Notes under the pieces: model-generated
Database searches by the model: none
Told to the model about the DNA's origin: nothing
The model's input: only the letters and a program-made list of their open reading frames with translations
Program-made: the position numbers and the translations under genes
Virus record (IMG/VR): IMGVR_UViG_3300037502_003155
Coordinates: 12,926 to 76,925 of that record
Origin: a virus
Length of the DNA stretch: 64,000 nucleotides
Direction: 5' to 3' (one strand)
Shown: one piece after another, positions 6,373 to 23,749 of the stretch
How the letters are laid out: the number at the start of each line of letters is the position of its first letter
Numbering within the stretch: the stretch's first letter is position 1

Positions 6373-6678
6373 TTATGCGGGCACTTTTGGGATTTCTACC
6401 ACAGTCCCCACGGGGGGGGCGGTGCGGCTGTGGCGGGAAGTGACGACAGCACCGCCTAGACGAGGGTCGAAGGTGCCGACCCATTGAGTGGTGTGGTAAT
6501 GATGGGCAAGGGCGGCGTAGAGCCACACAGGCCCACGTCCAGAGATGACTACGCCTTTGGTGCCGTCCACGTCGGGCGGGTTGAGGGTAGCAAGGTCTGC
6601 GGGTTCGCAGACCCCGCCGGGGATCTCGAACTCAAGCAGGGTCGCCCCTGCGAAGGGAGTGGTAGTGAACTGAATCAT
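6373..6678 (-). CDS. csx3: CRISPR-associated ring nuclease Csx3/Crn3 homologue
   Basis: 101 aa; family signature GVVISGRGPVWLYAALAHHYH...WVGTFDPRLGGAVVTSRH; GGAGG RBS. Confidence 0.88.
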   Translation of the reverse strand: MIQFTTTPFAGATLLEFEIPGGVCEPADLATLNPPDVDGTKGVVISGRGPVWLYAALAHHYHTTQWVGTFDPRLGGAVVTSRHSRTAPPVGTVVEIPKVPA

Positions 6679-6740
6679 GCTGCCTCCTTGGGCTGGTTGG
6701 GTGTGCAGGGCTTTACCTGCGGGGCTTGAGAGCGGTGACA

Positions 6741-7208
6741 TTAACGACGCTTGACGGGCCGGGGCTTGCCACTGGGGAGCGACTTGAACTCAGCCCCGAC
6801 CCATTGGCCGAGTTCGTCCAGCACCCACTGAGGGATCGGGATAGGTTCCCCTTTGTAGGCCGCTTTTGTGCGACCCAAGGCAGGGTTCCGGCGGCGGATA
6901 AATCCGCGCTCCAGAGTTTTTTGGGTTTTGTCCTCAATGACCGCGACCATTTTCGCGGGTACGCGAAAATCTTTGTAAACATTTTCGTCAATAGACCATC
7001 TTTTCATGTCAATAAACAACCCGTCTTTGATTACCCGGGTTTTTACTTGGTCTACTTCAACCAGATCGGTTTTTTTGCCGATCCGGATAAAAGTTTCCCA
7101 GTCCTCTCGACTAGGAACGACGGTGCCCTCAGCAAAGAACCATTCTGGGCCCCCATCCGAGGTTCCAGGCATAAACCCCCGGTAATGTCTCAACGCATCA
7201 GTTGCCAT
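6741..7208 (-). CDS. hypothetical protein (candidate anti-defence)
   Basis: 155 aa ORF co-oriented with csx3 and bounded by repeats. Confidence 0.65.
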   Translation of the reverse strand: MATDALRHYRGFMPGTSDGGPEWFFAEGTVVPSREDWETFIRIGKKTDLVEVDQVKTRVIKDGLFIDMKRWSIDENVYKDFRVPAKMVAVIEDKTQKTLERGFIRRRNPALGRTKAAYKGEPIPIPQWVLDELGQWVGAEFKSLPSGKPRPVKRR

Positions 7209-8074: not shown

Positions 8075-9826
8075 TTATAAATCCAGTAGCAGGTGCCCCA
8101 CATCATTTGGAATCTGGTATCGTGCTGGGCTACCCCCATCGCTCACCACAAAGCCGTCATCGGTGGCCATGCGGTCGAGGGTGAAGGCTACCTGGTCAGT
8201 GGTCAGTTTTTTGAGAGCTGTGGATTGTTGCCGGATCTCTGAGGCCAGCATGGGGGCGTTGGCCTTGTGCTCCAGGATGGCAAGAATGAGTTGCTTAACC
8301 TCGCTCATGGTTTCGGGGGTTACGGCCACCGCAACCTCAGGGAAAGTCCCCAATGTGTTGAGCGTGGGAATCTCAAGCTCTGGCGTTTGCCCCACGAACA
8401 ACCGTGACGCATGAACGGCAAACGTGCGGTTCACTGCTGACTGACGACGTAGGGCAGTGTGATAGGTTTGAGCCGATTCGCGCTCAGACTTTGCGCGGAT
8501 CAGTGCATCGTCCGTGAGCACGTTGTCGATGGTTTTGGCGTTGCCCTCCATGGGCTTGCCTTCGTGGTCTTTGGTCGTTTTGCAGCCCAAAGCTAGGGTG
8601 CAAATGTTGTCGCGCAATCCGCTGGATAACGTGTTTTTGCCAGGGGAAAAGCTGATGTCTCCGAGCAAATGGCTTTGGTTTACCAAAATCATGTGCATAT
8701 TTAGCTCACGGCCCGCCACGATAAGATCAAGAAAAACGGTGGTGATTAGCTTTTGCTCATCCTTCTCAAGCCAAGCCAGCTTGCCTTTGGCTAACATCCA
8801 CTCATCGAAGACAAACCAGAGATGTTTTCCCACGGGTTGCCCTTGATTCAGCCGTCCTTTGCGCTTCGTTAGCTCAGTATTGATCTGGTTAAACAATTTC
8901 AGGTAATCGTTATCCGACTGCATAAACCGAGCGGCGGGCTTAAGGTTTGCCCAGTCAGATCCTTTAGGGTCAGCAATGGTGATAAGGTGCCCCTGGTTGG
9001 CCAGATGGGTACAGAGATTCCGCAGCACCCAGGTTTTTCCGCTACCTGTAGTAGCAGCGATCAGAATGTGTATTTGGCTAGCCAGGTAGGGAACAAAGGC
9101 TTGTGGCAATTCGGCGGGTTGCCAGCCAGTAGATTCAGCTTCCATCGGGGGCGCTACAGCCTCTATGTGTTCCCACGGCTCCGTCACCATGTCAGGGGTG
9201 CCCTGGGGGGCTTCTATGGGCTGGGTCGGCTGGTCAGTTCCTTCAACAGCCGAGGATGATTCTTGAGGCGAGGATGATTCTTGAGGCTTCTGAAGCCATT
9301 GGAACGGGCCTAGTTCAGTCGGCACGCCCTTAGGCTCAATCCCCCAATCCTCTAGCAGTTGCTCTAGCCGTTGAATGGGCAGCATGACGTTAGTGGGGTC
9401 GCTAGGGTCAATCCAGCAATAGACCTCTCCATATTTGGCCAAGGGGTGCTTGTCCTTGGGGCTAAACTCAATCCAGCCTGTATGGCCGAGCATCCCTTCA
9501 ATGGCTCGGTTGATGGCGGCTACGTCGTAGCGTTTTTTAAGTTGTGCGCGAAGATCGTTGATGCTGGGATGCTTTGGGGTAGAGGCGCTCAAGATTTCCT
9601 GCAATTCATCCCCCTCTTCCTTAGGGCGAAACTTTTTGATTTCGTCCAAAAAATAAGCCCCCATACCAACAACCGCCGCAACACTGGCAATGGGCAGTGT
9701 TGCGGCGGTTGTATATAAAACAACGATACCCCCACCCACAACGATTGCCCTTTCTAGCAGCCCGCCGCTAGCTGGTTTAATGAGCGCGGGCTGTTTCTTT
9801 TTCGGGCTGATGGTGGTCAGGGTCAT
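8075..9826 (-). CDS. membrane-anchored FtsK/SpoIIIE/TraB-like DNA translocase ATPase
   Basis: N-terminal TM hairpin; Walker A ATTGSGKT; Walker B WFVFDE; GRELNMHMILVNQ motif; C-terminal winged-helix-like domain. Confidence 0.75.
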   Translation of the reverse strand: MTLTTISPKKKQPALIKPASGGLLERAIVVGGGIVVLYTTAATLPIASVAAVVGMGAYFLDEIKKFRPKEEGDELQEILSASTPKHPSINDLRAQLKKRYDVAAINRAIEGMLGHTGWIEFSPKDKHPLAKYGEVYCWIDPSDPTNVMLPIQRLEQLLEDWGIEPKGVPTELGPFQWLQKPQESSSPQESSSAVEGTDQPTQPIEAPQGTPDMVTEPWEHIEAVAPPMEAESTGWQPAELPQAFVPYLASQIHILIAATTGSGKTWVLRNLCTHLANQGHLITIADPKGSDWANLKPAARFMQSDNDYLKLFNQINTELTKRKGRLNQGQPVGKHLWFVFDEWMLAKGKLAWLEKDEQKLITTVFLDLIVAGRELNMHMILVNQSHLLGDISFSPGKNTLSSGLRDNICTLALGCKTTKDHEGKPMEGNAKTIDNVLTDDALIRAKSERESAQTYHTALRRQSAVNRTFAVHASRLFVGQTPELEIPTLNTLGTFPEVAVAVTPETMSEVKQLILAILEHKANAPMLASEIRQQSTALKKLTTDQVAFTLDRMATDDGFVVSDGGSPARYQIPNDVGHLLLDL

Positions 9827-9832
9827 GGCTGA

Positions 9833-10489
9833 TTACTCTCCATACTTTCTCATGTTTGATTTTTTGCCCCCGCCGAACACCCCGGCAAAGGCGAAGGTGG
9901 CACCGATCAACGCATCGAGGGCGAGGCTATCAACCAAGGCCGCAGTCATTGAGGCTTCACCCCCACGGGCTACCCACACGATCCAGGCTTCCACCACAAA
10001 GGCGGCAACAGAAAACAGAAGGATCGTCCGCAGTTGCTCGGCACTGAGTTTGTTGTGGCGGTCTACCAGGCGTTTAATTTCGCCGCTGTCGTTGGACTCA
10101 GCCGCCAACAGATTGCGGTTGCGTTGCTGCCCTCGCAGGTGGCTAATCATGCCCTCGATGACTCTGGGGTGAAAGTAGAGGCCAGTAGGGAGGGATTGCA
10201 GAATGGTGAGGACAATCAACACCACCACAGGGAGCAGTCCCACGAGGACGGACGCTGTTAGGTTGCAGAACCCCCGCAAGAATCCCCCTATCAATGGGGC
10301 GGCAACGAACTGGACGCATACCCCACTGATACGGCTTATCCCCCAGCTAGCAAAGGCCGCTTGGTATAAGCCCAGGGCACGGTAGAGAAGGAACGTCCCC
10401 ACCATGCCAGAGGCAACGTAGACGGGCCATTTGACCCACGAAAGGCCCACTTGCTTGCGAGGTGCGGCACTCTTGAATTCTTGAGTCAT
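9833..10489 (-). CDS. multi-pass membrane protein
   Basis: Several hydrophobic segments; co-transcribed with the ATPase. Confidence 0.7.
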   Translation of the reverse strand: MTQEFKSAAPRKQVGLSWVKWPVYVASGMVGTFLLYRALGLYQAAFASWGISRISGVCVQFVAAPLIGGFLRGFCNLTASVLVGLLPVVVLIVLTILQSLPTGLYFHPRVIEGMISHLRGQQRNRNLLAAESNDSGEIKRLVDRHNKLSAEQLRTILLFSVAAFVVEAWIVWVARGGEASMTAALVDSLALDALIGATFAFAGVFGGGKKSNMRKYGE

Positions 10490-10493
10490 GCCC

Positions 10494-10964
10494 TTACTGC
10501 TCCTGGCTGATTTGATAAACAATCTGGGCGCGTTGCTGCATCGCCTGGGCTTCCAGGGCAAAACCACCAGCCACTAGCGCCTCTCTGATTCGGGGGCTGG
10601 TGCCAATATGCTCAACGATCTGGCCAGACTCCACCCGGAATAAACTCCCGTCGCTGCTGCACACATAGCCTCCCTGGATAGGCGTGCCTTGGGGGTAGAG
10701 CGTCGTCACGCTCATAGGGTCGATGGGAACATCGCCAACAGCAAAGTTGGTCGTCTGGGTTTCACGATTGATCGCCTGAGCAATGCAGCTTTGCTCTACG
10801 AAAATGTTTTCAGCCCGTAGCTGGGCTTTGGCTCCGGCCTCATCAGACTGGCTTGCCTGAACCTGGGCACGGAACCGCTCAGCCCCTCCTAGGTACAAGC
10901 TCCCGCCAATCACGCCAGCGCAGGCCAGCAAAATAAACGTCGTCTTGTGATCATCTAGCTCCAT
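10494..10964 (-). CDS. single-TM exported protein
   Basis: GGGAGG RBS before MELDDH; TM segment FILLACAGVIGGSLYL. Confidence 0.65.
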   Translation of the reverse strand: MELDDHKTTFILLACAGVIGGSLYLGGAERFRAQVQASQSDEAGAKAQLRAENIFVEQSCIAQAINRETQTTNFAVGDVPIDPMSVTTLYPQGTPIQGGYVCSSDGSLFRVESGQIVEHIGTSPRIREALVAGGFALEAQAMQQRAQIVYQISQEQ

Positions 10965-11007
10965 ATCTGGCCTCCCTAAAATCGTCGCGAGAATCCTCGA
11001 AAGCATT

Positions 11008-11119
11008 GATCTAAGGCCATCTAAGGGGTATCTGGTAGTATCTGGCAGAGCATCTAGCGAGGGCCGTTTTAGATACCCCTTAGATGCCTCCGAGATGGCC
11101 CGCCAGATAGCCCTAGATG
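11008..11119. repeat. helically phased inverted repeat array (clt- or centromere-like)
   Basis: Five nATCTRR units at 11008, 11018, 11029, 11039 and 11051, then five inverted units at 11069, 11080, 11091, 11103 and 11113; spacing 10-12 bp. Confidence 0.75.
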
Positions 11120-11149
11120 GGTGCGCGGCATCATCGCGCATGGCCAGAA

Positions 11150-11626
11150 TTAGCCGTGCGATGCGGTACTGCTGGCTCCGTCCGAACTTGTCAAGTAAGC
11201 CGACTGCGTCCCCTGTTGCAATGGCGCGAAGGACACTGGCTTCAAGCTCGGCGCGACGATGCCCGTCTTCGGCCCGGTCGGGTGAGCCGCTACTAGCTCC
11301 CCTACGTTCCGGGCAATTTGCCCGAAAAAAGAGCCACCTAGCAGAATGTCAGCAAGCATCACACTGCTGTCATTTACCAATGGCTGTGCCGCCGCTTGGT
11401 ATTCATTGCCAATCTTCTGAATAGCCTGAGCCTTGGCGGTTAGAGACTCTTGCACCTGAGTTCGGATCTGGGCAAGCTCAGCCGCCACCTGAGCCCGATA
11501 TGCGGCATCTTCGCCGCCAAGAGGCGTCTTGGTGCTGCTAGCCTCCGAAGAAGTTTGCCCACTGGCTTGCGCTGTCTGGGGCTGGGCTTTGGGGTTGGCT
11601 TTGGGGTCGAATCCGTTGTTTGCCAT
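11150..11626 (-). CDS. hypothetical coiled-coil protein
   Basis: AGGAG RBS; in the translocase operon. Confidence 0.65.
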   Translation of the reverse strand: MANNGFDPKANPKAQPQTAQASGQTSSEASSTKTPLGGEDAAYRAQVAAELAQIRTQVQESLTAKAQAIQKIGNEYQAAAQPLVNDSSVMLADILLGGSFFGQIARNVGELVAAHPTGPKTGIVAPSLKPVSFAPLQQGTQSAYLTSSDGASSTASHG

Positions 11627-11879
11627 GATTGGGTTCTCCTAAAAACAATGAAATTTGGTCGTCGCTGTAGCCCTGGCGTTTCCACAAAGCCACCTGGGCT
11701 AATCGGTGGCATTGGCTTTCTGTTAACTCTCGGAGCCGTGACGGGATGCCTGCTAGATTGCACCATCGCCATAGGGTGGGTTCCGAGATTACCTGCCTAC
11801 TTTCGGGGTATCGAATCCGCGAAAGCTCTTGCCGTGCGGTCAATCTGTCGAATGTGGCAGGCGCGTGAAAAGCTTTCAT
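11538..11879 (-). CDS. HTH (excisionase/MerR-like) protein
   Basis: ISEPTLWRWCNLAGIP motif; phased CTTTCA repeats (11873, 11883, 11894) over the start. Confidence 0.55.
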   Translation of the reverse strand: MKAFHAPATFDRLTARQELSRIRYPESRQVISEPTLWRWCNLAGIPSRLRELTESQCHRLAQVALWKRQGYSDDQISLFLGEPNHGKQRIRPQSQPQSPAPDSASQWANFFGG

Positions 11880-12014
11880 CAGCTTTCACCGTCCTTTCAT
11901 CGGGCTTATAGAAATAGCCTAGCGCTAAAATCTCCCCTGTCAACCCCTAAGAAGGGAGGCTATAGGGGTAAAATATGGCGAGTGCCAATGTGTCGTAATT
12001 TGGAGAGAACGATT

Positions 12015-12269
12015 ATGGAGAGTCCCATGGCCCCTCGAAGTGCCCAGCCAAACTTGCAGGAGATTAAGATCAACGTCCCGTCTGAGTTGCTAGCTGATGC
12101 GCTGGAAATGTTTGAGGCCATGGGACTGAAGCCAGGGGACGCCCACCGGGACGCATGGATCGAGGGCGTTCAGGCCATGGCGGAAAAGTACAACAAAGTT
12201 TTGGTTAACAAGCGCCTGCGGCGACGGCTGGCACAAGGGGATGTTTCTAATAGCCATGAGGAAAACTAA
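12015..12269 (+). CDS. small divergent regulator (RHH-like)
   Basis: EIKINVPSELLADA strand-helix pattern; divergent from the translocase operon. Confidence 0.55.
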   Translation: MESPMAPRSAQPNLQEIKINVPSELLADALEMFEAMGLKPGDAHRDAWIEGVQAMAEKYNKVLVNKRLRRRLAQGDVSNSHEEN

Positions 12270-12742: not shown

Positions 12743-13657
12743 CTAGTGCCAACCCAGTGAATCCATAGCGTCATCACTGATCGGTGTAAACAGCATTTTT
12801 TCATGCCCGTTGCTGTCTTGACCGCATTGAATAGCCAAAGGGAATGTTCCGAACTCAGCAAGACCTCTAGCTAATTGCTGGTTTTGCTCTGTCAGATATT
12901 TTCTGCATGGATAAGCGGTAACAGACAGATGACATACCCCATTTTGCTTATCAGCGTGAATCAGGCTGACAACTGGAATCACTGGTTCGCTATTGTCAAA
13001 CTTTGGGTCTTGAAGAATATCCAAGATGTCGTGTCGAATTTGAGGATAAACATCGGCAACAATCAATCCAACGGCTTCCTCCTGTTGCTCTCTTGGCATT
13101 GCCCAAAATTCTTCTGGTGATTCAATGATCTTTACCCACATTTGCACCCCGCTATAGTCTTGCTCTAAACCAACCGGGTCTTTGCACTGAATGACAATGC
13201 TCTGTAGCGGCGTATTGTTTTTGATGGCGTCTCGCAAAGCCAGGGTAGGAATCATCATGGTTCCGTCAGGCGTATCAATGAAGCTGAGCAAAGACGGTTT
13301 GCTATTGAGGATTTTTCTCTGCTGCTTTTTTGTCAGCACCTTCTGTAAATCAACAGAAGCAAAGCCTTTAGGCTTCTTCCTGGATTTTTTGGTTTGCTTT
13401 ATGTTGTGGTTCCCCACCAATAGGGCAACATGATCCAAGACAGGGCGGCACAATTCAAACCATTCCCCTTCTAATCGATGATGTGCCAATTCAGAATGAA
13501 TACGGCTTTCTACTTCAACCCCACCGGGGATAAAGCCTAAGAGCCTTAGTTTGCGAGGGTTAGCGGTTTGCAAAGCCCTCAGCCTTTTTTCTGGATTTTT
13601 ATCTTTGGTGTAGCCAATCTTTACGGCATCGCCGTCTTCGATGAAATAGACCGTCAT
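12743..13657 (-). CDS. GIY-YIG (T5orf172/MUG113-type) domain protein
   Basis: VYFIEDGDAVKIGYT...KRLRALQTANP...ESRIH...GEWF. Confidence 0.85.
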   Translation of the reverse strand: MTVYFIEDGDAVKIGYTKDKNPEKRLRALQTANPRKLRLLGFIPGGVEVESRIHSELAHHRLEGEWFELCRPVLDHVALLVGNHNIKQTKKSRKKPKGFASVDLQKVLTKKQQRKILNSKPSLLSFIDTPDGTMMIPTLALRDAIKNNTPLQSIVIQCKDPVGLEQDYSGVQMWVKIIESPEEFWAMPREQQEEAVGLIVADVYPQIRHDILDILQDPKFDNSEPVIPVVSLIHADKQNGVCHLSVTAYPCRKYLTEQNQQLARGLAEFGTFPLAIQCGQDSNGHEKMLFTPISDDAMDSLGWH

Positions 13658-13711
13658 TGATTCTCTCCAAACAACGATGCCCCGGTCAATGCCGGGGCTA
13701 TGTGGTCTCAC

Positions 13712-14284
13712 CTAGTCTTCTAGCACTCTCTTAACCTTGCGGGCTACGTCAGAGCAAATGCCCTCACACTGATCGGCCCCCCAAGCCTGGGTATCTTCAA
13801 TCGTTCGGCCCGACTTAATCTCTGCCAACGTTAGGGCGGCTAACTCCAGTTCATCAAGGCCGTCCCTAGTTGACTTTACCTTGCGCGATGCCTGAAGCTG
13901 CTTGGCTGTCTGCCCAAATAGCCCCACGTTCACCGCATTGGTGCATCGGGCATATTCATGGGGGTAAGCAACGCCGTGATTCTTGAGCGTGTCAGTAAGC
14001 TGGTATCGCGCCACCTTGCCGTCAAGGCGTGCCTTAATCTGCTTGTCTGACCAACCTAAGCGACTGTATTTGCGAACGGCATGGTCAAGTGCTTTATCTG
14101 GGTCGGCAATGATGCCAGCAGCCCACCGCCGAAACTCAGCCCCACGCTTACCAGGGCACAGCATGAGGATTTGGTACATCCCCTCTTCATTGGTAACGGG
14201 GGTTTCCCGTTGCCCACGACCGGGGAATTTGAAGTCCGAACAAAAGTCGCTAACCTCAGGATTCTGCTTTTCAAGTCGCTGCCG
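13712..14284 (-). pseudogene. 5'-truncated phage antirepressor-like (BRO/KilA-type) gene
   Basis: The frame reads RQRLEKQNPEV...KFPGRGQRETPV...QILMLCPGKRGAEFRRWAA with no start codon upstream; it abuts the integrase end. Confidence 0.6.
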
Positions 14285-15347
14285 CTACATGAGGGATGCT
14301 AGCCCCCTGCTCCAGCAGGTGACTGCCTAGGCTATGCCGTGCGGAGTAGGGCACTCGGTCAACGCCCGCCGCTTTGCAGATCCGTTTCCATGTGCGTTGG
14401 GAAAAATCGCAATCATTGATCGGGTTGCCCCGTGGGGTTAAAAATATCAAGTCGTCCGGCTTAGCCCCGGCGGGCCTCCGGGCGTTCAGCATCGCCACCA
14501 TGTCAGCGTGCAGTGTCAGTGTCCTCACCTTGTTGGTCTTGGTGCCCTTTCTTTGCCGTGCCCAGCCAGCCGCCTTGCCATCGGGGGCTCGGGCGAGGGC
14601 TTCAGCAATGGTTGCCACACCGCGCTCTAGGTCAATGTGTCGCCACCTCAAGCCCGCTGCCTCGCTAACTCGCAGCCCCAAGTAGAACAGGGTCATTACA
14701 AAATCATGGTAGGGCTCGGTGCAGGGATCAGCCTTGGTGGCATCCAAGAAAGCCCGGATCTGCCCAGCAGTTAGCGGTGCCCGTTTTGGGTTGGGTTGGC
14801 GGCTGGCTTTGATGCGTGGCACGTCTGTCCACGGGTTGGACTCTAAGTGCCCCCGCTGCATGGCCCATTGACCAAAACTTCGCAGCCTCGATAGATTCTG
14901 GTTCGCCACAATGCCCGACTGAGAGGCCCGTAGGCGTTCGAGAAAGGCCGCTGCCTCTTTGGTGGTCACAATGTCCTTTCCCCATCGCTGTAGATGCCCT
15001 AGCAGTGGCTTATAGCTAGCGGTAATGGTTTGGCCGCTGGTGCCGTCCTCCCTGCGATGCTCGATAAATTGCTCGAACAGATCGGCGGTGGTTAGCCGGG
15101 GTGGCTCTGGCTCCGGCTCTGGCTGGGGTTTGTATTTGGCTAGCGTTGGGTCAAACTGCTCACGGGCAATATCAGCCTGAATCTCGGTGGCTAGTATCTC
15201 GGCACGATGGCGGTTGAGGGGGCTATCGGGTAGGCCAATGGCAAGCTGATACGGTCGCCCCTGGTGTGTCCACCTCAGGCGTAGCATTTCATTTCGCGTT
15301 GACACTGACACTGCCCCCCGTTTGTTACGGCGGTTTTTCCTGGGCAT
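14271..15347 (-). pseudogene. int: tyrosine integrase with arm-binding domain, C-terminally truncated
   Basis: LRLRW...G...QLAIGLPD arm domain; GLRVSE and YSARH motifs; the ORF stops before the LG[H/N]...Y catalytic segment. Confidence 0.8.
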
Positions 15348-19085: not shown

Positions 19086-19796
19086 TCAATTTGTTGGGTA
19101 AGGATCTGAGGGAATGCCTGATATTGCCCTAACAACGCCGCGTGTTACCCTAATATCGTCTATTCTCCCTGCAAATTGCCAGGAGGGATTTATAGTAGAA
19201 GACCCTCCAATTTGATTTGCAAATGGACTGGAATTAATCAACCCACCATTAGTCCCTGAGTTTTCAAGGTTGCCATCTATATAGATAGCCCATATTCCTG
19301 TCGAGTGATTATAAGTAAATGCTACATAATAAGTAGTATTTGCAACCAAAGATGTGGTGGAATTTAGAAAATTAGTTCCGGATCTACTGGCAGATAATTT
19401 GTTTCCCTGGACAAATAAAATAAAAGATCCAATCTGGGTGGCACTACTGTTTCCATAACTGGTATAGATAATCTTATTTCCCGTTACATTGTCTGGGCGT
19501 ATAAAAGCTTCAATTGTAAAGCTTTCGTTTCTTAGTCCAAAATGAGGGATAGACAGGTTCCCACCAGAACCGCTAAACAATCCTGAGCTTGTACCTCTTA
19601 GAGGGGTTGTGGTTGTAATTACCGGGGTTGTAGAAACTACATTAACTGTTCTAGAAAATGCGCTTGAGTCAGTAAAGGTAGTGCTGTTATTCGCACCCTC
19701 AAAACTTAGAAGTAAGTTGACATTACTCCAATTAGGGTCAGTCTCACCACCACCCCGAAACGCTTTCCGTCGGTGCATCAAATAGGGGTTTACCAT
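19086..19796 (-). CDS. LamG/concanavalin A-like virion protein
   Basis: DPNWSNVNLLLSFEG, FTIEAFI and FAGRIDDIRVTRGV; AT-rich. Confidence 0.85.
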   Translation of the reverse strand: MVNPYLMHRRKAFRGGGETDPNWSNVNLLLSFEGANNSTTFTDSSAFSRTVNVVSTTPVITTTTPLRGTSSGLFSGSGGNLSIPHFGLRNESFTIEAFIRPDNVTGNKIIYTSYGNSSATQIGSFILFVQGNKLSASRSGTNFLNSTTSLVANTTYYVAFTYNHSTGIWAIYIDGNLENSGTNGGLINSSPFANQIGGSSTINPSWQFAGRIDDIRVTRGVVRAISGIPSDPYPTN

Positions 19797-22700
19797 GCTG
19801 TTGGCTCCGTCGCTGTTTCGGTGTATTGAAGCCTGATTCCAATCAGCCGCGCATCAGCGGTTAGGGTGTCGGCCACATCCCGGAACACCTCAAAATACAG
19901 CCAGTCATCTACCGCAGGGGTGCCCGCAATGGTGATGGCCGCTGTGGATGCGGTGACGTGCAAATCCCCCGTAGCGATCAGGGTATCGGTCACGCTCTGA
20001 GGTGTCCCGTAGGCCGTGTCTAGGGCGTCGTCATCGGCCAAACTGCCAGCCTCCAGTGCCCAGGTAACGGTGCCTGTACCCGCCGCTGCTGTCCAATAGA
20101 ATTTGGCCTTTACCGTGCCCCCATTCCACGCCTGAGGCAGGGATAGCTGAAAACACGCGGCCTCGCTGGTGGTTTGGTCAAAGTCCAAAACATCGTAGGT
20201 GATGTCATTGGTGGCAGTCTCCACCGTCGCCACCGCTGCGCCGTTGGTCGTCCTGGGCGTCATCGCCCCGGCCCCGATCCACAGTTCGCGCACTATCCCT
20301 GTTCGGGTGCCGTTGGATGCAGCGGTGATGCGCCCTTGGGCGTCCACGGTTAGGTTGGTGTTGGTATAGCTACCCGCCGAAACAGCGGTGCTTGCTAGCT
20401 TTGCCGCCGTTACAGCCCCCGTGTCGATTGTCCAGGTTGCCCCGGCACTAGACACAGTAATATCGCCCTTGTCCCCATCAGATACCCCGCTACCTGTGCC
20501 TATCTGAGTCTCACTACCCCCGGACGGTCGGTAGTAAAGCAGGTTGTCCGATTTTGCGTAGACAATAGTATTCCCCGCCGCAGGGGCCGATGGGGTGGCG
20601 ATATGCTCTAGGGTGAGGCCAGAGGCAGCGGAGACTGACCCGGATGCACCCGTGGGGCCAATTAGCGAGGTTGGGCTACCCCATGAACCGCCAACCTTGG
20701 GGCCGTAGATGGCGTTGGCTGTAGTGTCAATGTAGAAATCCCCGTCGGCACCTGTCCCACCTCCAGGGGCTCCGCTTCCGCTTAGGATGGTGCTACCATC
20801 GGCCCCCGCTGCACCCGTCGTCCCTTGCGGCCCGATCAACGAGGTCGGGCTTCCCCATGCGCCCCCAGTTTTTGGGCCATAGAGGGCATCTGCGGTGGTA
20901 TCAAGGTAGAAGTCACCGTTCACCCCCGTTCCACCGCTAGGGGCACCGTTTCCGCTCAGAATGGTATTTCCCGCTGGCCCCTGTTCCCCCGGTCGGCCCG
21001 CAATGTAGGTTTTACTGCCACTGGCCACGGTCGCCCCTGGCGAAGCATTGCCCGTGGCCCCAGTATTTTGCAGGGAGAGGGATGTCGATGAGGGCTTGCT
21101 AACCACGGTATAAGCCCCGCCCCCCTCCACAAACACCGTCGCCACTGCCGGGAAGATCCGCGAGTTACGAACGTTGACGGTGACGTTAGCCCCGATAGAA
21201 GGCTGGGTAAAGCTAGCGGTGGTCAGGGAGTAGGGCAAAAAATTAAACAGCGTTGACCAAGTGGTGGCACTGCTCTTTTTGAGGACATCGCCATAGGTGG
21301 TAAGAGCATCATTCGCCATTACCGCCAAATCCCCTGTTTCCCCCGTTGCCGCCGTAGGTGCCGCCTGAAGCACTAGGATTTGATCGGAGTCATCCTTGAC
21401 CCAACGCCCTGCACTGGGATAGGCGATATCGAATGGGCGAACAAATTGAGTCCCCCAACTCGCCACGATGGCCGCACCATTGGCTAAGGTGCCGTTGCCA
21501 CTAGAGTAGGTCACGGTGACCGTGCGGTAGGCTCCGCTATCTGCCACCGCGCTGATGATGTACTCGGCATAGGTCGCTTCTGTGGAGACCGATTGCAGCC
21601 TCAAAGTCTGGTTTGCCGCAAGGGCATCTAACAGTGTCGCCACCGATGTACTAGCGCTGTTGGTTTCGGAGAGGTAAACCGTGGTGACGCTGGCCAGGGT
21701 GGCATTGTTGACCCGGACTTGCCCCGATGCTGGCCCTGGTGTTGTGGTTGTGGAAAACAGGTAATCAGCGTCTTCGGTGACAGTCTCAGCCGCCTGCCAA
21801 CGGTAGGGATTCCCTTCGGCTGCGCAAAAGACTTCTTTGTAGGTGGTACGGTCACTAGGGCCAAGGCTCTGCAAATCCCAAACCGTATCGACCGGACGGC
21901 CTAGGTAAGTCAGCAGTTGAAACAGGTCGGCTAGGTTGCCGTCTACTTCAGTGATGCAGCCCGACGTGGTGCGATGGTCAATACTGGTGACGGTGCTATC
22001 AAACCGAAAGGCTATGGCGACTTCATAGTTCTGGGAAGTGAAGACCGAACTACCTGCGGTGGGTACCGGGACAAAGCTATCGTCGGCGGGCTCGTATAGC
22101 CCAAAGCGATCATTGGGCCTTGCCGGGGGTTCAGTGCCCCCGCTATCCACACCAGACACAGCCCCCACGGTGAAGACATCAGAGGCGTTGCCTTGGGTAA
22201 CGGGGAAATCCCAGTAGATCGCATTGCCGCCCCCGGTGGGTCTAACGTAAACCCGTACCGTATCCGCATTAAATTGGCCTAGGGTGCTACCTGCAATTGC
22301 GTCGTCATAGTCGAGGCGGATTGCCGTGGGGTAGGTGACGGTGACTTGGGCATAAAGGGCGTTGGAGAGGGTGACGGGGGCGCTCCATGCCGTGGCCTTG
22401 CCTTGTCCGTCTACGGTGCCCACAATGGCCCTCAATGGGGCATAATCAGGCACGGTGCTAGACACCAGGCAATCGCCACTGGCATTGATGACCACGTTTT
22501 GGTTGGCCGTGTTGGCCAGCAGTCCCGTTACTGATTGTTCCCCCACATTGGTAAAACTGAACCCCTTGTTTAGGGGTAACTGAAGGATGCCTGACCCATT
22601 TAAGGACAAAGGGTTCAGCGTCCTAGTAGGGACTAGGCGGCGACGGTCGTACTCTCCCAAGATGACCGACCCCGTGATGGCAGCGGCATTGTTGGGGGTA

Positions 22701-23749
22701 GCATTCTCAGCAAAGAAGGATGGGGTAATCCTCAGAACGGTGCCGTCGGGGATCTGGGTGGTCAGCGTGGCTACATCAAGGTTGGCGCGAATGCTCACCA
22801 CGTAGGCCGAGCCAGCGGGCAACGCCTTTTGCAGGATAAGCCCCGTGTCACCATCCCCGGTATAGGTCACGGATTCCCCAATACCCGCCATGGTGCCCAC
22901 ACCACCGCTACCTGTGGTGTCTAATACCCCAGTAGAGACGTTGACAAACCCTAGAAAGGCTAGCTCGATGCCGCCAATGATGCCCGCCAGGTTCGTTAGG
23001 TCAGTGTCGATGCCGCCAATATCTGCCGAAACGGTGAGGCCCACACGAGTCCCCTGAGCAACGGGGCTAGCGTCGTTGTTGGTTAGCCAGTATTTGATGG
23101 GTTCTGAGTCCCCAGAAAGGGCATAGCTGGGGTAGATGATGGCGCTTAGGTCTGTGATGGCCGATAGACTTTGGCTGGCCCCTAACGTCCCCTCAAGGCT
23201 GGTGGTGTAGCCGCTGAATACCTGAGGGATAGCCACGACCCAGGCTGTAGATGCAGCGCTCCATTCGTAGATCGCCCCGTCGAGGTCGTCGATAGAGCGG
23301 CGTATCCCGTTGATCCTGTTTGCCCCCGTGGGTAGGTTGGCACTGCTGGCGACGGTTAGGGAGGTGAGATTGATGTGTTCGTTCTCGGTGAGGTCGATGG
23401 TAAAGGGCGGGGGCAATACCGTCGTTCCGTCGGTGTCGATGCCAGGTTTAGCCGCAATGATGACGGCATTAAGGGGGTTAGTGTCAGCGCTGCAAAGGAT
23501 GCTGTAGGAACGAATATCCACTCCCCCTGACGGGTATGGTAGGACAGTTGATGGAATGGTGAGGCGTAAACCCGATCCGCTGGCGATAGTGGCCTCTACA
23601 CGGGTTGAAACGAGAGAGAACCCGCCACGGGATTGAGTTTGTAGCCAGAACGAATAGGTGCCCGCCCGTGTGGTGATATTCCCGGCAATGATGCCCGTAG
23701 TGAGTGCCGGGGGATTGGATGGGGCCGCTGCATATTGGTATCTGGGCAT
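19790..23749 (-). CDS. large tail fibre/spike protein with collagen-like repeats
   Basis: 1319 aa, T/S/G-rich; two internal repeats GxxGDFY[LI]DTTA..YGPK.GG.WGSPTSLIGP; VDAQGRITAAS and DGDKGDITVS fibre motifs. Confidence 0.8.
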   Translation of the reverse strand: MPRYQYAAAPSNPPALTTGIIAGNITTRAGTYSFWLQTQSRGGFSLVSTRVEATIASGSGLRLTIPSTVLPYPSGGVDIRSYSILCSADTNPLNAVIIAAKPGIDTDGTTVLPPPFTIDLTENEHINLTSLTVASSANLPTGANRINGIRRSIDDLDGAIYEWSAASTAWVVAIPQVFSGYTTSLEGTLGASQSLSAITDLSAIIYPSYALSGDSEPIKYWLTNNDASPVAQGTRVGLTVSADIGGIDTDLTNLAGIIGGIELAFLGFVNVSTGVLDTTGSGGVGTMAGIGESVTYTGDGDTGLILQKALPAGSAYVVSIRANLDVATLTTQIPDGTVLRITPSFFAENATPNNAAAITGSVILGEYDRRRLVPTRTLNPLSLNGSGILQLPLNKGFSFTNVGEQSVTGLLANTANQNVVINASGDCLVSSTVPDYAPLRAIVGTVDGQGKATAWSAPVTLSNALYAQVTVTYPTAIRLDYDDAIAGSTLGQFNADTVRVYVRPTGGGNAIYWDFPVTQGNASDVFTVGAVSGVDSGGTEPPARPNDRFGLYEPADDSFVPVPTAGSSVFTSQNYEVAIAFRFDSTVTSIDHRTTSGCITEVDGNLADLFQLLTYLGRPVDTVWDLQSLGPSDRTTYKEVFCAAEGNPYRWQAAETVTEDADYLFSTTTTPGPASGQVRVNNATLASVTTVYLSETNSASTSVATLLDALAANQTLRLQSVSTEATYAEYIISAVADSGAYRTVTVTYSSGNGTLANGAAIVASWGTQFVRPFDIAYPSAGRWVKDDSDQILVLQAAPTAATGETGDLAVMANDALTTYGDVLKKSSATTWSTLFNFLPYSLTTASFTQPSIGANVTVNVRNSRIFPAVATVFVEGGGAYTVVSKPSSTSLSLQNTGATGNASPGATVASGSKTYIAGRPGEQGPAGNTILSGNGAPSGGTGVNGDFYLDTTADALYGPKTGGAWGSPTSLIGPQGTTGAAGADGSTILSGSGAPGGGTGADGDFYIDTTANAIYGPKVGGSWGSPTSLIGPTGASGSVSAASGLTLEHIATPSAPAAGNTIVYAKSDNLLYYRPSGGSETQIGTGSGVSDGDKGDITVSSAGATWTIDTGAVTAAKLASTAVSAGSYTNTNLTVDAQGRITAASNGTRTGIVRELWIGAGAMTPRTTNGAAVATVETATNDITYDVLDFDQTTSEAACFQLSLPQAWNGGTVKAKFYWTAAAGTGTVTWALEAGSLADDDALDTAYGTPQSVTDTLIATGDLHVTASTAAITIAGTPAVDDWLYFEVFRDVADTLTADARLIGIRLQYTETATEPTAW

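Follow-up and report, generated by a model that had tools for sequence, protein, structure and literature searches.

The window analyzed here is a stretch of 64,000 nt, positions 12,926 to 76,925 of IMG/VR record IMGVR_UViG_3300037502_003155, a freshwater viral genome of 76,925 bp that is 91% complete. Positions 8075-11879 of the window hold, on the minus strand, a single co-directional row of genes for an HTH-like protein, a helical protein and, beyond a gap, a protein with one transmembrane (TM) helix, a protein with four, and a 583-aa ATPase. The ORFs of this row were found where the first-pass annotation had placed them, with two starts corrected, and hydropathy bore out the membrane character it had given the last three products. 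The first gene (11538-11879, minus strand) encodes 113 aa with an HTH-like pattern of the Xis/MerR type; counterparts of 81-92 aa open the cassette in related loci, and positional alignment gave 11-15% identity to those of L003, L004, L006, L016 and L017. The second gene (11150-11626, minus strand), with AGGAG 8 nt upstream of its ATG, starts within the end of the first, overlapping it by 89 nt, and encodes a soluble, predicted helical protein of 158 aa whose sole match was weak and apolipoprotein-like; soluble proteins of about 130-152 aa stand at the equivalent position in related loci. On the plus strand a divergent small ORF of about 84 aa (12015-12269, candidate starts), possibly a ribbon-helix-helix regulator, has a comparable divergent ORF in L006. 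The labels given to these three small proteins at first reading are sequence patterns only, with no Pfam or PDB match for the HTH protein, no Pfam, NCBIfam or PDB profile support for a coiled coil in the 158-aa protein, and no Pfam match for the regulator.

The start of the single-TM gene (ORF 10494-11141, minus strand) was corrected to the ATG at 10964, behind AGGGAGG, so that 10965-11149 is a non-coding gap of 185 bp. The resulting 156-aa bitopic protein (10494-10964) has an N-terminal TM helix and an extracytoplasmic domain with two conserved cysteines, of which C60 is invariant and C102 near-invariant in the family alignments (A4, A6). It has 13 homologues among 5.8 billion proteins, and its AF2 model (pLDDT 58) gave no fold match. 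For the next gene (ORF 9833-10567, minus strand) the most likely start is 10489, giving a polytopic protein of 218 aa with about four TM helices (9833-10489); it aligns remotely with multi-TM proteins of 163-180 aa upstream of the ATPase in related loci and had no relatives in Pfam, NCBIfam, PADLOC or Atlas. All of the partner proteins are orphans, for which no connection with Spd, VirB8, VirB6 or another known family could be detected.

The ATPase (8075-9826, minus strand) begins with a TM hairpin at residues 26-60 (9647-9751), conserved across the family and serving as membrane anchor, a topology from which the motor core would face the cytoplasm. A small alpha/beta domain follows at residues 70-165 (9332-9619; AF2 pLDDT 60-77), with 45-49% identity to the N-termini of P0075-P0078 and P0053-P0069, and is common to a second ATPase family having a different P-loop core. 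Residues 231-500 (8327-9136) form a single RecA-like motor core of FtsK/TcpA type, modeled with pLDDT mostly 85-97 and bearing the motifs ATTGSGKT (Walker A), DPKG, VFDEW (Walker B), GRELNMH..NQSH and LRDN, in the order typical of FtsK and found also in the FtsK of phage CrV-01T. The C-terminal winged helix that had been suspected was located at residues 503-573 (8108-8320) and matched the Rpa2 winged helix (VIA Z 10.3, rmsd 1.6, 65 residues aligned). It is confined to the lineage that resembles the window (P0002-P0004, L008) and is missing in the majority of the family, whose members have 409-454 aa, while related winged helices also occur as free small proteins (P0081, P0084). Foldseek ranked TcpA best (E 4e-7) and FtsK next, and VIA Z scores for the motor were 15.4 for TcpA (rmsd 4.0, 221 aligned), 13.7 for EccC (rmsd 3.7, 212 aligned), 13.6 for HerA, 12.8 for FtsK and 11.4 for TrwB. 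TcpA, FtsK and EccC are thus nearer than the VirD4 type, represented by TrwB, but HerA lies only about 2 Z behind TcpA, and the fold ranking leaves TcpA, FtsK, EccC and HerA within about 2 Z units. The top three BFVD structural matches were a Nodularia protein and entries of 641 and 525 aa, the lengths of the CL131 and N1 proteins. In sequence the ATPase belongs to a small and separate clade, with 74 matches among 1.84 billion representatives, so membership in TraB is not established.

Within the non-coding gap lies a phased array of five ATCT followed by five AGAT, spaced at 10-12 bp (11009-11118, no strand), that contains a perfect 16-bp inverted repeat (11018-11033 and 11071-11086). The array pattern is unique in the window, with 6 matches against 0 expected from shuffles, and is kept in the 88% relative L009 although the downstream gene of L009 has diverged. 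It was not seen in the gaps of L004 and L006 nor in the other loci compared, its conservation being confined to the lineage bearing the winged helix. The array is a candidate protein-binding site, possibly clt-, operator- or centromere-like.

The carrier is a tailed, temperate phage. Capsid, protease, portal, TerL and MuF genes are present, in keeping with the first placement of the cassette inside a phage, and temperate life follows from a tyrosine integrase (14271-15347, minus strand; Pfam Phage_integrase at 1.5e-19 together with Arm-DNA-bind_2, PHROG 1 at 3e-46). With a terminase and portal of the phage's own, the cassette ATPase is not the packaging motor. Neither relaxase nor VirB4 was found among the scanned ORFs, and no nuclease or type IV secretion system (T4SS) partners of the cassette were found, which agrees with a membrane cassette built on one translocase and lacking a T4SS. 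The cassette adjoins the integrase and regulatory region, lying between an island of PDC-S13-like and T5orf172 genes, on the side of the integrase, and the ring nuclease Csx3, with which it shares one long leftward operon containing other small early-looking genes; the linkage to Csx3 recurs in L012 and L017.

The gene order of the cassette is kept in 15 independent metagenomic loci, making the row more than chance, and most related cassettes additionally have a tail-anchored protein. Since the capsid gene is a different one in viral contigs with the cassette, the latter behaves as a module in its own right. Among isolated phages, divergent forms are found in those of Planktothrix, Aphanizomenon, Nostoc/Anabaena, Nodularia and Cylindrospermopsis, with an equivalent layout in PaV-LD, CL131, Nostoc N1/A1, Nodularia phages and CrV-01T; where the ATPase gene only was compared, Elbi, A-1(L), YongM, YongM2 and Dfl-JY23 carry homologues of the N1 ATPase, and Leptolyngbya phage Lbo402-yong5 carries one like that of CL131. 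Hosts of all of these named isolates are filamentous cyanobacteria. The survey of filamentous against unicellular hosts proposed by the first-pass annotation found divergent cassettes only in filamentous-host phages among those examined: an architecture scan gave 0 of 11 for unicellular-host phages, a panel both small and biased, and three filamentous-host phages (A-4L, Pf-WMP3 and PA-SR01) lack the cassette. The panel was hand-picked and in part assembled by way of the matches themselves, and phage lineages cannot be counted as independent. Phages of Bacillus and Mycobacterium, too, often carry FtsK-like genes.

Because the layout recurs in filamentous-host phages and not in the scanned unicellular-host phages, it may move phage DNA between neighboring cells. 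The reading that we favor from this distribution, at a probability of roughly one in three, is that the cassette pushes phage DNA across the septum into the adjacent cell of a filamentous cyanobacterial host. In the cytoplasmic membrane its products would assemble into a small machine for DNA translocation, in which the ATPase, by analogy with FtsK, TraB and TcpA, would form a ring pumping double-stranded DNA. Synteny suggests that the bitopic cysteine protein and the four-TM protein, joined in most relatives by the tail-anchored protein, may form the membrane and periplasmic side of a conduit, and that the products of the first two genes may have roles on DNA or in regulation. In the window lineage the C-terminal winged helix, perhaps with the first gene product, could recognize the ATCT/AGAT array and so load the motor onto phage DNA, as the winged helix of TraB does on clt repeats. 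Such sequence-specific loading cannot be the general mechanism, as winged helix and array are missing from most members. If transfer does occur, several cells might be reached from one adsorption or one induced prophage. Several of the isolated carriers are phages which we take to be lytic, and prophage spreading without virions, as originally suggested, is therefore only one version of the idea.

Passage to a neighbor would be the counterpart of TraB/Spd spread over Streptomyces cross-walls, the precedent being dsDNA transfer by Streptomyces plasmids and AICEs (pSVH1, pIJ101, pSAM2) (PMC4447253). At the level of layout the analogy, drawn already from the gene row, is sound: each has one FtsK-like motor that is anchored in the membrane and ends in a winged helix, small and partly overlapping membrane-protein genes without relaxase or T4SS, a putative DNA-binding protein followed by membrane proteins and then the motor, a repeat array, lying in the operon or close to it, as candidate loading site, and a host, presumably multicellular in the case of the window phage, with septa to cross. 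As in AICEs, an integrase is close by. Membership in the TraB family did not hold up, however, with Pfam FtsK_SpoIIIE reaching 14.4 bits where the cut-off is 24, no GntR-type TraR/KorA regulator, and partners without homology to Spd or other known families. Unlike the Streptomyces systems, moreover, the cassette resides in a tailed phage whose virion module is complete and probably meets a diderm envelope in its host, and most of its relatives have no winged helix.

An alternative explanation, unlikely in our view but the one to be taken most seriously, is that the apparatus handles incoming DNA at the membrane of the infected cell itself, either as an early-made motor drawing in the rest of the phage genome, in the manner of second-step transfer or phi29, or as a complex that blocks or expels the DNA of superinfecting phages. 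A motor on the cytoplasmic side, anchored in the membrane, could pull DNA inward, presumably lytic carriers are in keeping with this reading, and the early-looking leftward operon with Csx3, linked again in L012 and L017, would suit host take-over or exclusion just as well. In temperate phages, genes for exclusion are often located near the integrase and regulatory region, as the cassette is. To our knowledge, however, FtsK-like ATPases do not feature in any exclusion or genome-entry system, and incoming DNA would leave unexplained why, among the phages examined, only those of filamentous hosts had the cassette, and fail to account for the operon-internal array and the winged helix.

It is less probable that the motor acts in FtsK-like segregation, clearing or partitioning replicating or episomal phage DNA across closing host septa so that the phage passes to the daughters or concatemers caught there are resolved. 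Phage FtsK/SpoIIIE genes have been linked in a published comment to moving phage DNA into spores (PMC8597652), and CrV-01T has a fuller FtsK-like protein of 672 aa at the equivalent position. The cassette ATPase shares with FtsK/SpoIIIE and with FtsK-like genes of phages (PaV-LD ORF127L, CrV-01T gp053, A-1(L), Bacillus and Mycobacterium phages) the motif order Walker A, DPK, Walker B, GR..G.H..Q, R.N, a membrane anchor and an optional C-terminal winged helix like FtsK gamma. It lacks the alpha domain, however, has a two-TM hairpin instead of a four-TM domain, has a gamma-like winged helix in one lineage only, and differs in its small clade and in its cassette of dedicated small membrane partners, which are not an FtsK feature. 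The window phage also has an integrase, so partition is not needed.

Protein export of the type VII kind, in which the helical proteins encoded upstream would be the cargo of an EccC/EssC-like ATPase and its small membrane partners, is more doubtful again. EccC is the second-best fold match, and the set of bitopic, tail-anchored and polytopic proteins with a helical protein of about 140 aa loosely recalls EssA/EssB/EsaA and a WXG-like substrate, but there is one ATPase domain rather than three, no WXG100, EssB or EccB family was matched, TcpA and FtsK score equal or better, and winged-helix domains and repeat array point to DNA. We give still less credence to a prophage-borne anti-phage or abortive-infection defense built on a HerA/FtsK-type ATPase. 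Fold matches include HerA, DndH and HerA-Sir2/DUF assemblies (Z 11.6-13.6), PADLOC gave a weak match to mad8 (1.5e-7, P-loop region only), and the position between the PDC-S13-like/T5orf172 island and Csx3 would suit defense; against this, the search turned up no effector partner such as a nuclease or Sir2, no PADLOC system was matched, and the cassette occurs also in isolated phages presumed lytic.

TcpA of Clostridium perfringens pCW3 (PDB 6o1w-6o1z) is the best structural match and likewise has two N-terminal TM helices and one FtsK-like domain, but the similarity in sequence is marginal (E 0.4) and TcpA operates with the full Tcp T4SS (TcpF/VirB4, TcpH/VirB6, TcpC/VirB8 and the relaxase TcpM), none of which is found here. 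That the ATPase is a coupling protein mobilizing the phage genome via a host- or plasmid-encoded T4SS is very improbable, for although one homologue carries the annotation "DNA translocase coupling protein" and streptococcal IMEs are reported to have TcpA-type coupling proteins of their own (PMC5357655), no relaxase, oriT-like nick region or VirB4 was identified and the conserved membrane partners would be superfluous for a hijacker.

Two observations give a hint of the host: the major capsid protein of the carrier is closest to those of PaV-LD and CL131, and one homologue of the 156-aa partner sits in a Nodosilinea sp. MAG. Among other stand-alone motors, TdtA of Thermus thermophilus has different partners and depends on recipient competence. 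TdtA is reported as the transjugation DNA donor ATPase of ICETh1 and resembles the cassette motor as a stand-alone ATPase of the FtsK/HerA superfamily, encoded by an integrated element and exporting DNA without a T4SS (PMC5365140).

The present analysis identifies a recurrent, self-contained membrane-motor module of six to seven orphan proteins in freshwater phages, represented in the window by a cassette on the minus strand. The gene row described in the first-pass annotation was confirmed: five minus-strand open reading frames (ORFs) follow one another in the same orientation between 11879 and 8075, the last encoding a 583-amino-acid (aa) membrane ATPase (8075–9826). The earlier statement that no relaxase or type IV secretion system (T4SS) genes are visible also held, with no relaxase or VirB4-like gene among the scanned ORFs of the phage record. 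By hydropathy the 156-aa protein has one transmembrane (TM) helix and the 218-aa protein four, and residues 26–60 of the ATPase make up a TM hairpin. The start of the single-TM gene was corrected to the ATG at 10964, preceded by AGGGAGG; in locus L009, an 88%-identical relative, the sequence upstream of 10964 is conserved, whereas the protein encoded after it is another member of the family, and from this start and conservation pattern 10965–11149 is non-coding. The multi-TM gene probably starts at 10489. The earlier labels "HTH", "coiled-coil" and "divergent regulator" are pattern-based and no library match supports them. The HTH-like proteins did not match any PDB profile, the partner proteins had no match in Pfam, PHROGs, NCBIfam or PADLOC, the multi-TM protein had no relatives in the ESM Atlas, and a poor AF2 model of the bitopic protein (pLDDT 58) gave no fold match above Z 3.4, an outcome that speaks neither for nor against a VirB8/TcpC-like identity. 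Neither GntR nor any other family was found among the small proteins, and the partners are without known relatives.

The IMG/VR virus record has 76,925 bp at a completeness of 91%, and the window spans its positions 12926–76925. The record carries the tailed-phage genes for major head protein, prohead protease, portal, large terminase and MuF, together with a prim-pol/DUF3987 replicase, two methylases, SSB, an exonuclease and a class II RNR, and a tyrosine integrase with an arm-binding domain at 14271–15347 indicates that it is temperate. A role of the ATPase as packaging motor was ruled out because the phage has its own TerL, portal, MuF, protease and capsid genes. The data show an FtsK/TcpA-type motor that is anchored in the membrane, has conserved small membrane partners and is separate from the packaging machine. 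The window stretch or a near-identical relative was present in lake and freshwater metagenomes from at least 12 studies, and metatranscriptome contigs from two freshwater libraries, which cannot prove transcription, strand or timing, included short pieces at 8639–8810, 10995–11135, 11214–11508 and 12110–12260, falling in the ATPase, the gap with its repeat array, the helical gene and the divergent ORF, respectively. There are hints of the host: the capsid protein is nearest to those of the cyanophages PaV-LD (37%) and CL131 (30%), and a 923-bp contig of a Nodosilinea sp. MAG encodes a 58% homologue of the bitopic partner.

The ATPase is a member of the FtsK-HerA superfamily. Its library matches are P-loop-level only, with 14.4 bits for FtsK_SpoIIIE (PF01580; Pfam cut-off 24), 21.9 for DUF87 (cut-off 23.2) and 21.1 for TrwB_AAD_bind (cut-off 20.5, P-loop stretch only), TraD and EssC fragments in NCBIfam, and TcpA at E 0.4 among PDB sequences. 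An AF2 model built on 21 homologues was confident for residues 231–500, the motor core, which is a single P-loop domain with a beta-like core only and a short helix before Walker A. Foldseek placed pCW3 TcpA first (E 4e-7) and FtsK next, and VIA-align gave Z 15.4 to TcpA (rmsd 4.0, 221 aligned), followed by EccC (13.7), HerA (13.6), DndH (13.2), FtsK (12.8), VirB4 (12.5) and TrwB. The first-pass view of an FtsK-like rather than a VirD4- or HerA-like ATPase was borne out in part, as TcpA and FtsK lead in Foldseek and TrwB scores lower in VIA-align (Z 11.4), but HerA lies within 2 Z of TcpA; on this model the FtsK/TcpA side appears closest, by a margin that is not decisive. The motif order (Walker A, DPK, Walker B, GR..G.H…Q, R.N) matches that of the FtsK of phage CrV-01T, and residues 503–573 fold as a winged helix (Z 10.3, rmsd 1.6). 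The family is small: 5.8 billion proteins yielded 71 matches and 1.84 billion representatives 74. Its typical member has 409–454 aa and no winged helix; Pfam labels vary among relatives, some being PF01580 and others PF01935 or PF10412. The only matches in actinomycetes, at 31% across 150 aa (E 4e-4), were unnamed proteins of Streptomyces plasmids. Two scans of 185,579 species genomes found no prophage copies, which is weak evidence of absence given the narrow patterns; an archaeal match there was spurious, P-loop only. The N-terminal anchor with its small domain (residues 1–165) and the winged helix recur on two other, unrelated-looking P-loop cores among proteins from the family searches (P0004 and P0053–P0069, with related proteins P0075–P0079); the winged helix is found on its own as a small protein as well. 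Since different P-loop cores share these end domains, the core seems, judging from sequence, to be an exchangeable part that has been swapped while the ends were kept. Within the ATPase gene, an 18-bp tandem duplication (9248–9283) encodes a QESSSP/QESSSA repeat in a disordered linker, and a lake metagenome contig short by exactly 18 bp there indicates copy-number polymorphism; a perfect inverted repeat of 18 bp, its arms 8 nt apart (9669–9712), lies in the region coding for the TM hairpin.

The ATPase was present in four viral contigs and eleven metagenome contigs, and wherever upstream sequence was available the gene order was identical: a protein of ~85 aa, a soluble protein of ~140 aa, a gap with a tiny hydrophobic ORF in some, a tail-anchored protein of ~158 aa, a bitopic protein of ~164 aa with two conserved Cys, a multi-TM protein of ~165–180 aa, and the ATPase. 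The tail-anchored gene is missing from the window cassette, whose bitopic and multi-TM proteins share 17–25% identity with those of the other loci. The capsid protein of the window had no match in the four viral contigs (only 62–79% complete) and three of the four carry integrases; the cassette therefore moves between different, apparently temperate, phages. Among viral proteins the best structural matches were a 712-aa Nodularia phage protein and proteins of 641 and 525 aa, the lengths of the CL131 and Nostoc N1 ATPases, respectively. By neighbourhood reading, five isolate groups, namely PaV-LD (ORF131L–127L), CL131, Nostoc A1/N1, the Nodularia phages (gp131–gp140) and CrV-01T (gp046–gp053), share a layout in which one or more DNA-binding-like small proteins, a helical protein and small TM proteins precede an ATPase that is anchored N-terminally and ends in a small C-terminal domain. 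BLAST, for the ATPase only, added Elbi, A-1(L), YongM, YongM2, Dfl-JY23 and Leptolyngbya phage Lbo402-yong5, and the hosts of all named carriers are filamentous. Each isolate ATPase recovered only its own lineage in BLAST, and PF01580 and our ATPase family profile (A2) were too insensitive for a census, missing N1, A1 and CL131. An architecture scan, which required an ORF of 250 aa or more with a TM among its first 120 residues and a Walker A after that, was positive in all controls. It found none in 11 phages of unicellular hosts (Ma-LMM01, Mic1, Me-ZS1, P-SS2, S-PM2, S-CBS1-4, S-EIV1 and S-LBS1), after a match in Ma-LMM01 was discarded as a chance motif in a polytopic transporter-like protein; the filamentous-host phages A-4L, Pf-WMP3 and PA-SR01 were also negative. 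Fisher's test gave p ~0.005 for 5/8 against 0/11, with positives partly found through the query, and a hand calculation gave p ~0.03 for the a-priori panel only (3/6 against 0/11). The phages compared are related lineages and some positives are query-derived, so that the tracking of filamentous hosts is suggestive, a pattern and not a result. Bacillus and Mycobacterium phages, too, commonly have FtsK-like genes, so that the presence of such a gene in a phage is no novelty as such. Individual genes had been annotated only as "FtsK/SpoIIIE", "DNA translocase FtsK" or "coupling protein", and among titles and abstracts on cyanophage FtsK and PaV-LD FtsK none covers the cassette or its distribution.

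The cassette parallels the TraB/Spd layout of Streptomyces (PMC4447253). Like TraB, the ATPase combines an N-terminal membrane anchor with a cytoplasmic motor, and the analogy of layout drawn in the first-pass annotation is sound but does not establish membership of the TraB family; the PF01580 score is below cut-off and the motif order is FtsK-like. TraB binds 8-bp clt repeats through a C-terminal wHTH; the possible counterparts in the window, as read from sequence and model, are the winged helix and an array in the gap of five ATCT then five AGAT at a spacing of 10–12 bp, plus a perfect 16-bp inverted repeat. The array pattern had six matches at one spot and none elsewhere in the 64 kb, and shuffles gave 0. 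Among all loci it is present in L009 alone, which belongs to the winged-helix lineage; the equivalent gaps of two other related loci, L004 and L006, lack it. This suggests a candidate loading or operator site; the co-occurrence of array and winged helix is confined to a single lineage, and both features are absent from most members of the cassette family. TraB also works with a GntR-type TraR/KorA regulator and Spd partners, whereas family searches found neither in the cassette.

The likeliest purpose of the cassette is to pass phage DNA through the septum to adjacent cells (probability roughly 0.35), a reading by analogy based on the TraB/Spd-like layout and the tracking of filamentous hosts. 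The ATPase ring would pump dsDNA at the cytoplasmic membrane. The outer membrane of such filaments is not known to enter the septum, and only membranes and perforated septal peptidoglycan would have to be crossed there. One adsorption or one induced prophage might then reach several cells of a filament. The full proposal, a dedicated TraB/Spd-like apparatus by which phages of filamentous cyanobacteria pump their dsDNA via the septum and infect or lysogenise several cells virion-free, is tentative and, taken whole, somewhat unlikely. An alternative explanation could be genome entry or superinfection exclusion, which we consider unlikely. Septal segregation is distinctly doubtful: FtsK/SpoIIIE has alpha, beta and gamma winged-helix domains, a long linker and a 4-TM N-domain, whereas the ATPase has a beta-like core and a 2-TM hairpin, and a gamma-like winged helix occurs within the family only in the window lineage. 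Protein export resembling a type VII secretion system would fit the structural score to EccC, but is improbable, as EccC/EssC has three tandem FtsK-like domains, WXG100 substrates and EccB/EssB, while the ATPase is a single domain with no such partner families and EssC/EccC matches in NCBIfam of only 11–14 bits. Defence is more improbable again, PADLOC matches of the ATPase being P-loop-level only (mad8 1.5e-7, HerA, PtuA). A relation to HerA itself, which has a HAS-barrel N-domain and usually a nuclease partner, may hold in view of the close score; no NurA, Sir2 or other nuclease was seen, and no barrel is evident in the model, where the N-domain is of low confidence. A coupling protein for a foreign T4SS would explain TcpA being the top match in Foldseek and VIA-align but is very improbable, since TcpA-type proteins share the motor fold yet work with a relaxase and a VirB4-containing T4SS, neither found in the scanned phage ORFs.

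To our knowledge, there is no description of a bacterial virus passing between the cells of a multicellular bacterium without virions. If septal transfer occurs, bacterial viruses would have a conjugation-like way of spreading within one organism, TraB-type dsDNA transfer would reach beyond Actinobacteria, and burst size, lysogenisation and resistance would be counted per filament instead of per cell in bloom-formers such as Planktothrix, Aphanizomenon, Dolichospermum, Nodularia and Cylindrospermopsis. If the idea is wrong, an undescribed recurrent cassette in a widespread freshwater phage group still stands. Its function is directly testable because A-1(L), N-1 and Elbi, which have homologous ATPases, infect the tractable host Nostoc/Anabaena PCC 7120.

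Several features of the neighbourhood may be recorded. Downstream of the ATPase and in the same direction lies a stand-alone Csx3 ring nuclease (6373–6741; Pfam 1e-26); after the ATPase come a 155-aa gene and Csx3, both in the window and in metagenome locus L012 (1636–2106), and the 155-aa gene only in locus L017. In one DNA contig of a freshwater metagenome, 6385 and 8090 are connected by 26 other letters, a natural variant without the 155-aa and 157-aa genes between Csx3 and the ATPase. Between integrase and cassette (12743–14179) are two genes, for a 322-aa T5orf172/MUG113 (GIY-YIG-like) protein and a 155-aa DinD/DdrC-like protein matching PADLOC candidate system PDC-S13 (1e-18), a pair that may be a defence or anti-defence islet. 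In PaV-LD (84775–88430, locus L038) small TM proteins, a peptidase and the endolysin come immediately after the membrane ATPase, an order that hints at a link of the cassette to cell-wall remodelling in that phage. At 19086–23749 a ConA-like/Laminin_G_3 protein adjoins a very large tail-region protein, and in Nodularia phage kac65v161 (MK605243, 28830–33199) a ConA-like lectin likewise follows a 3.7-kb gene.
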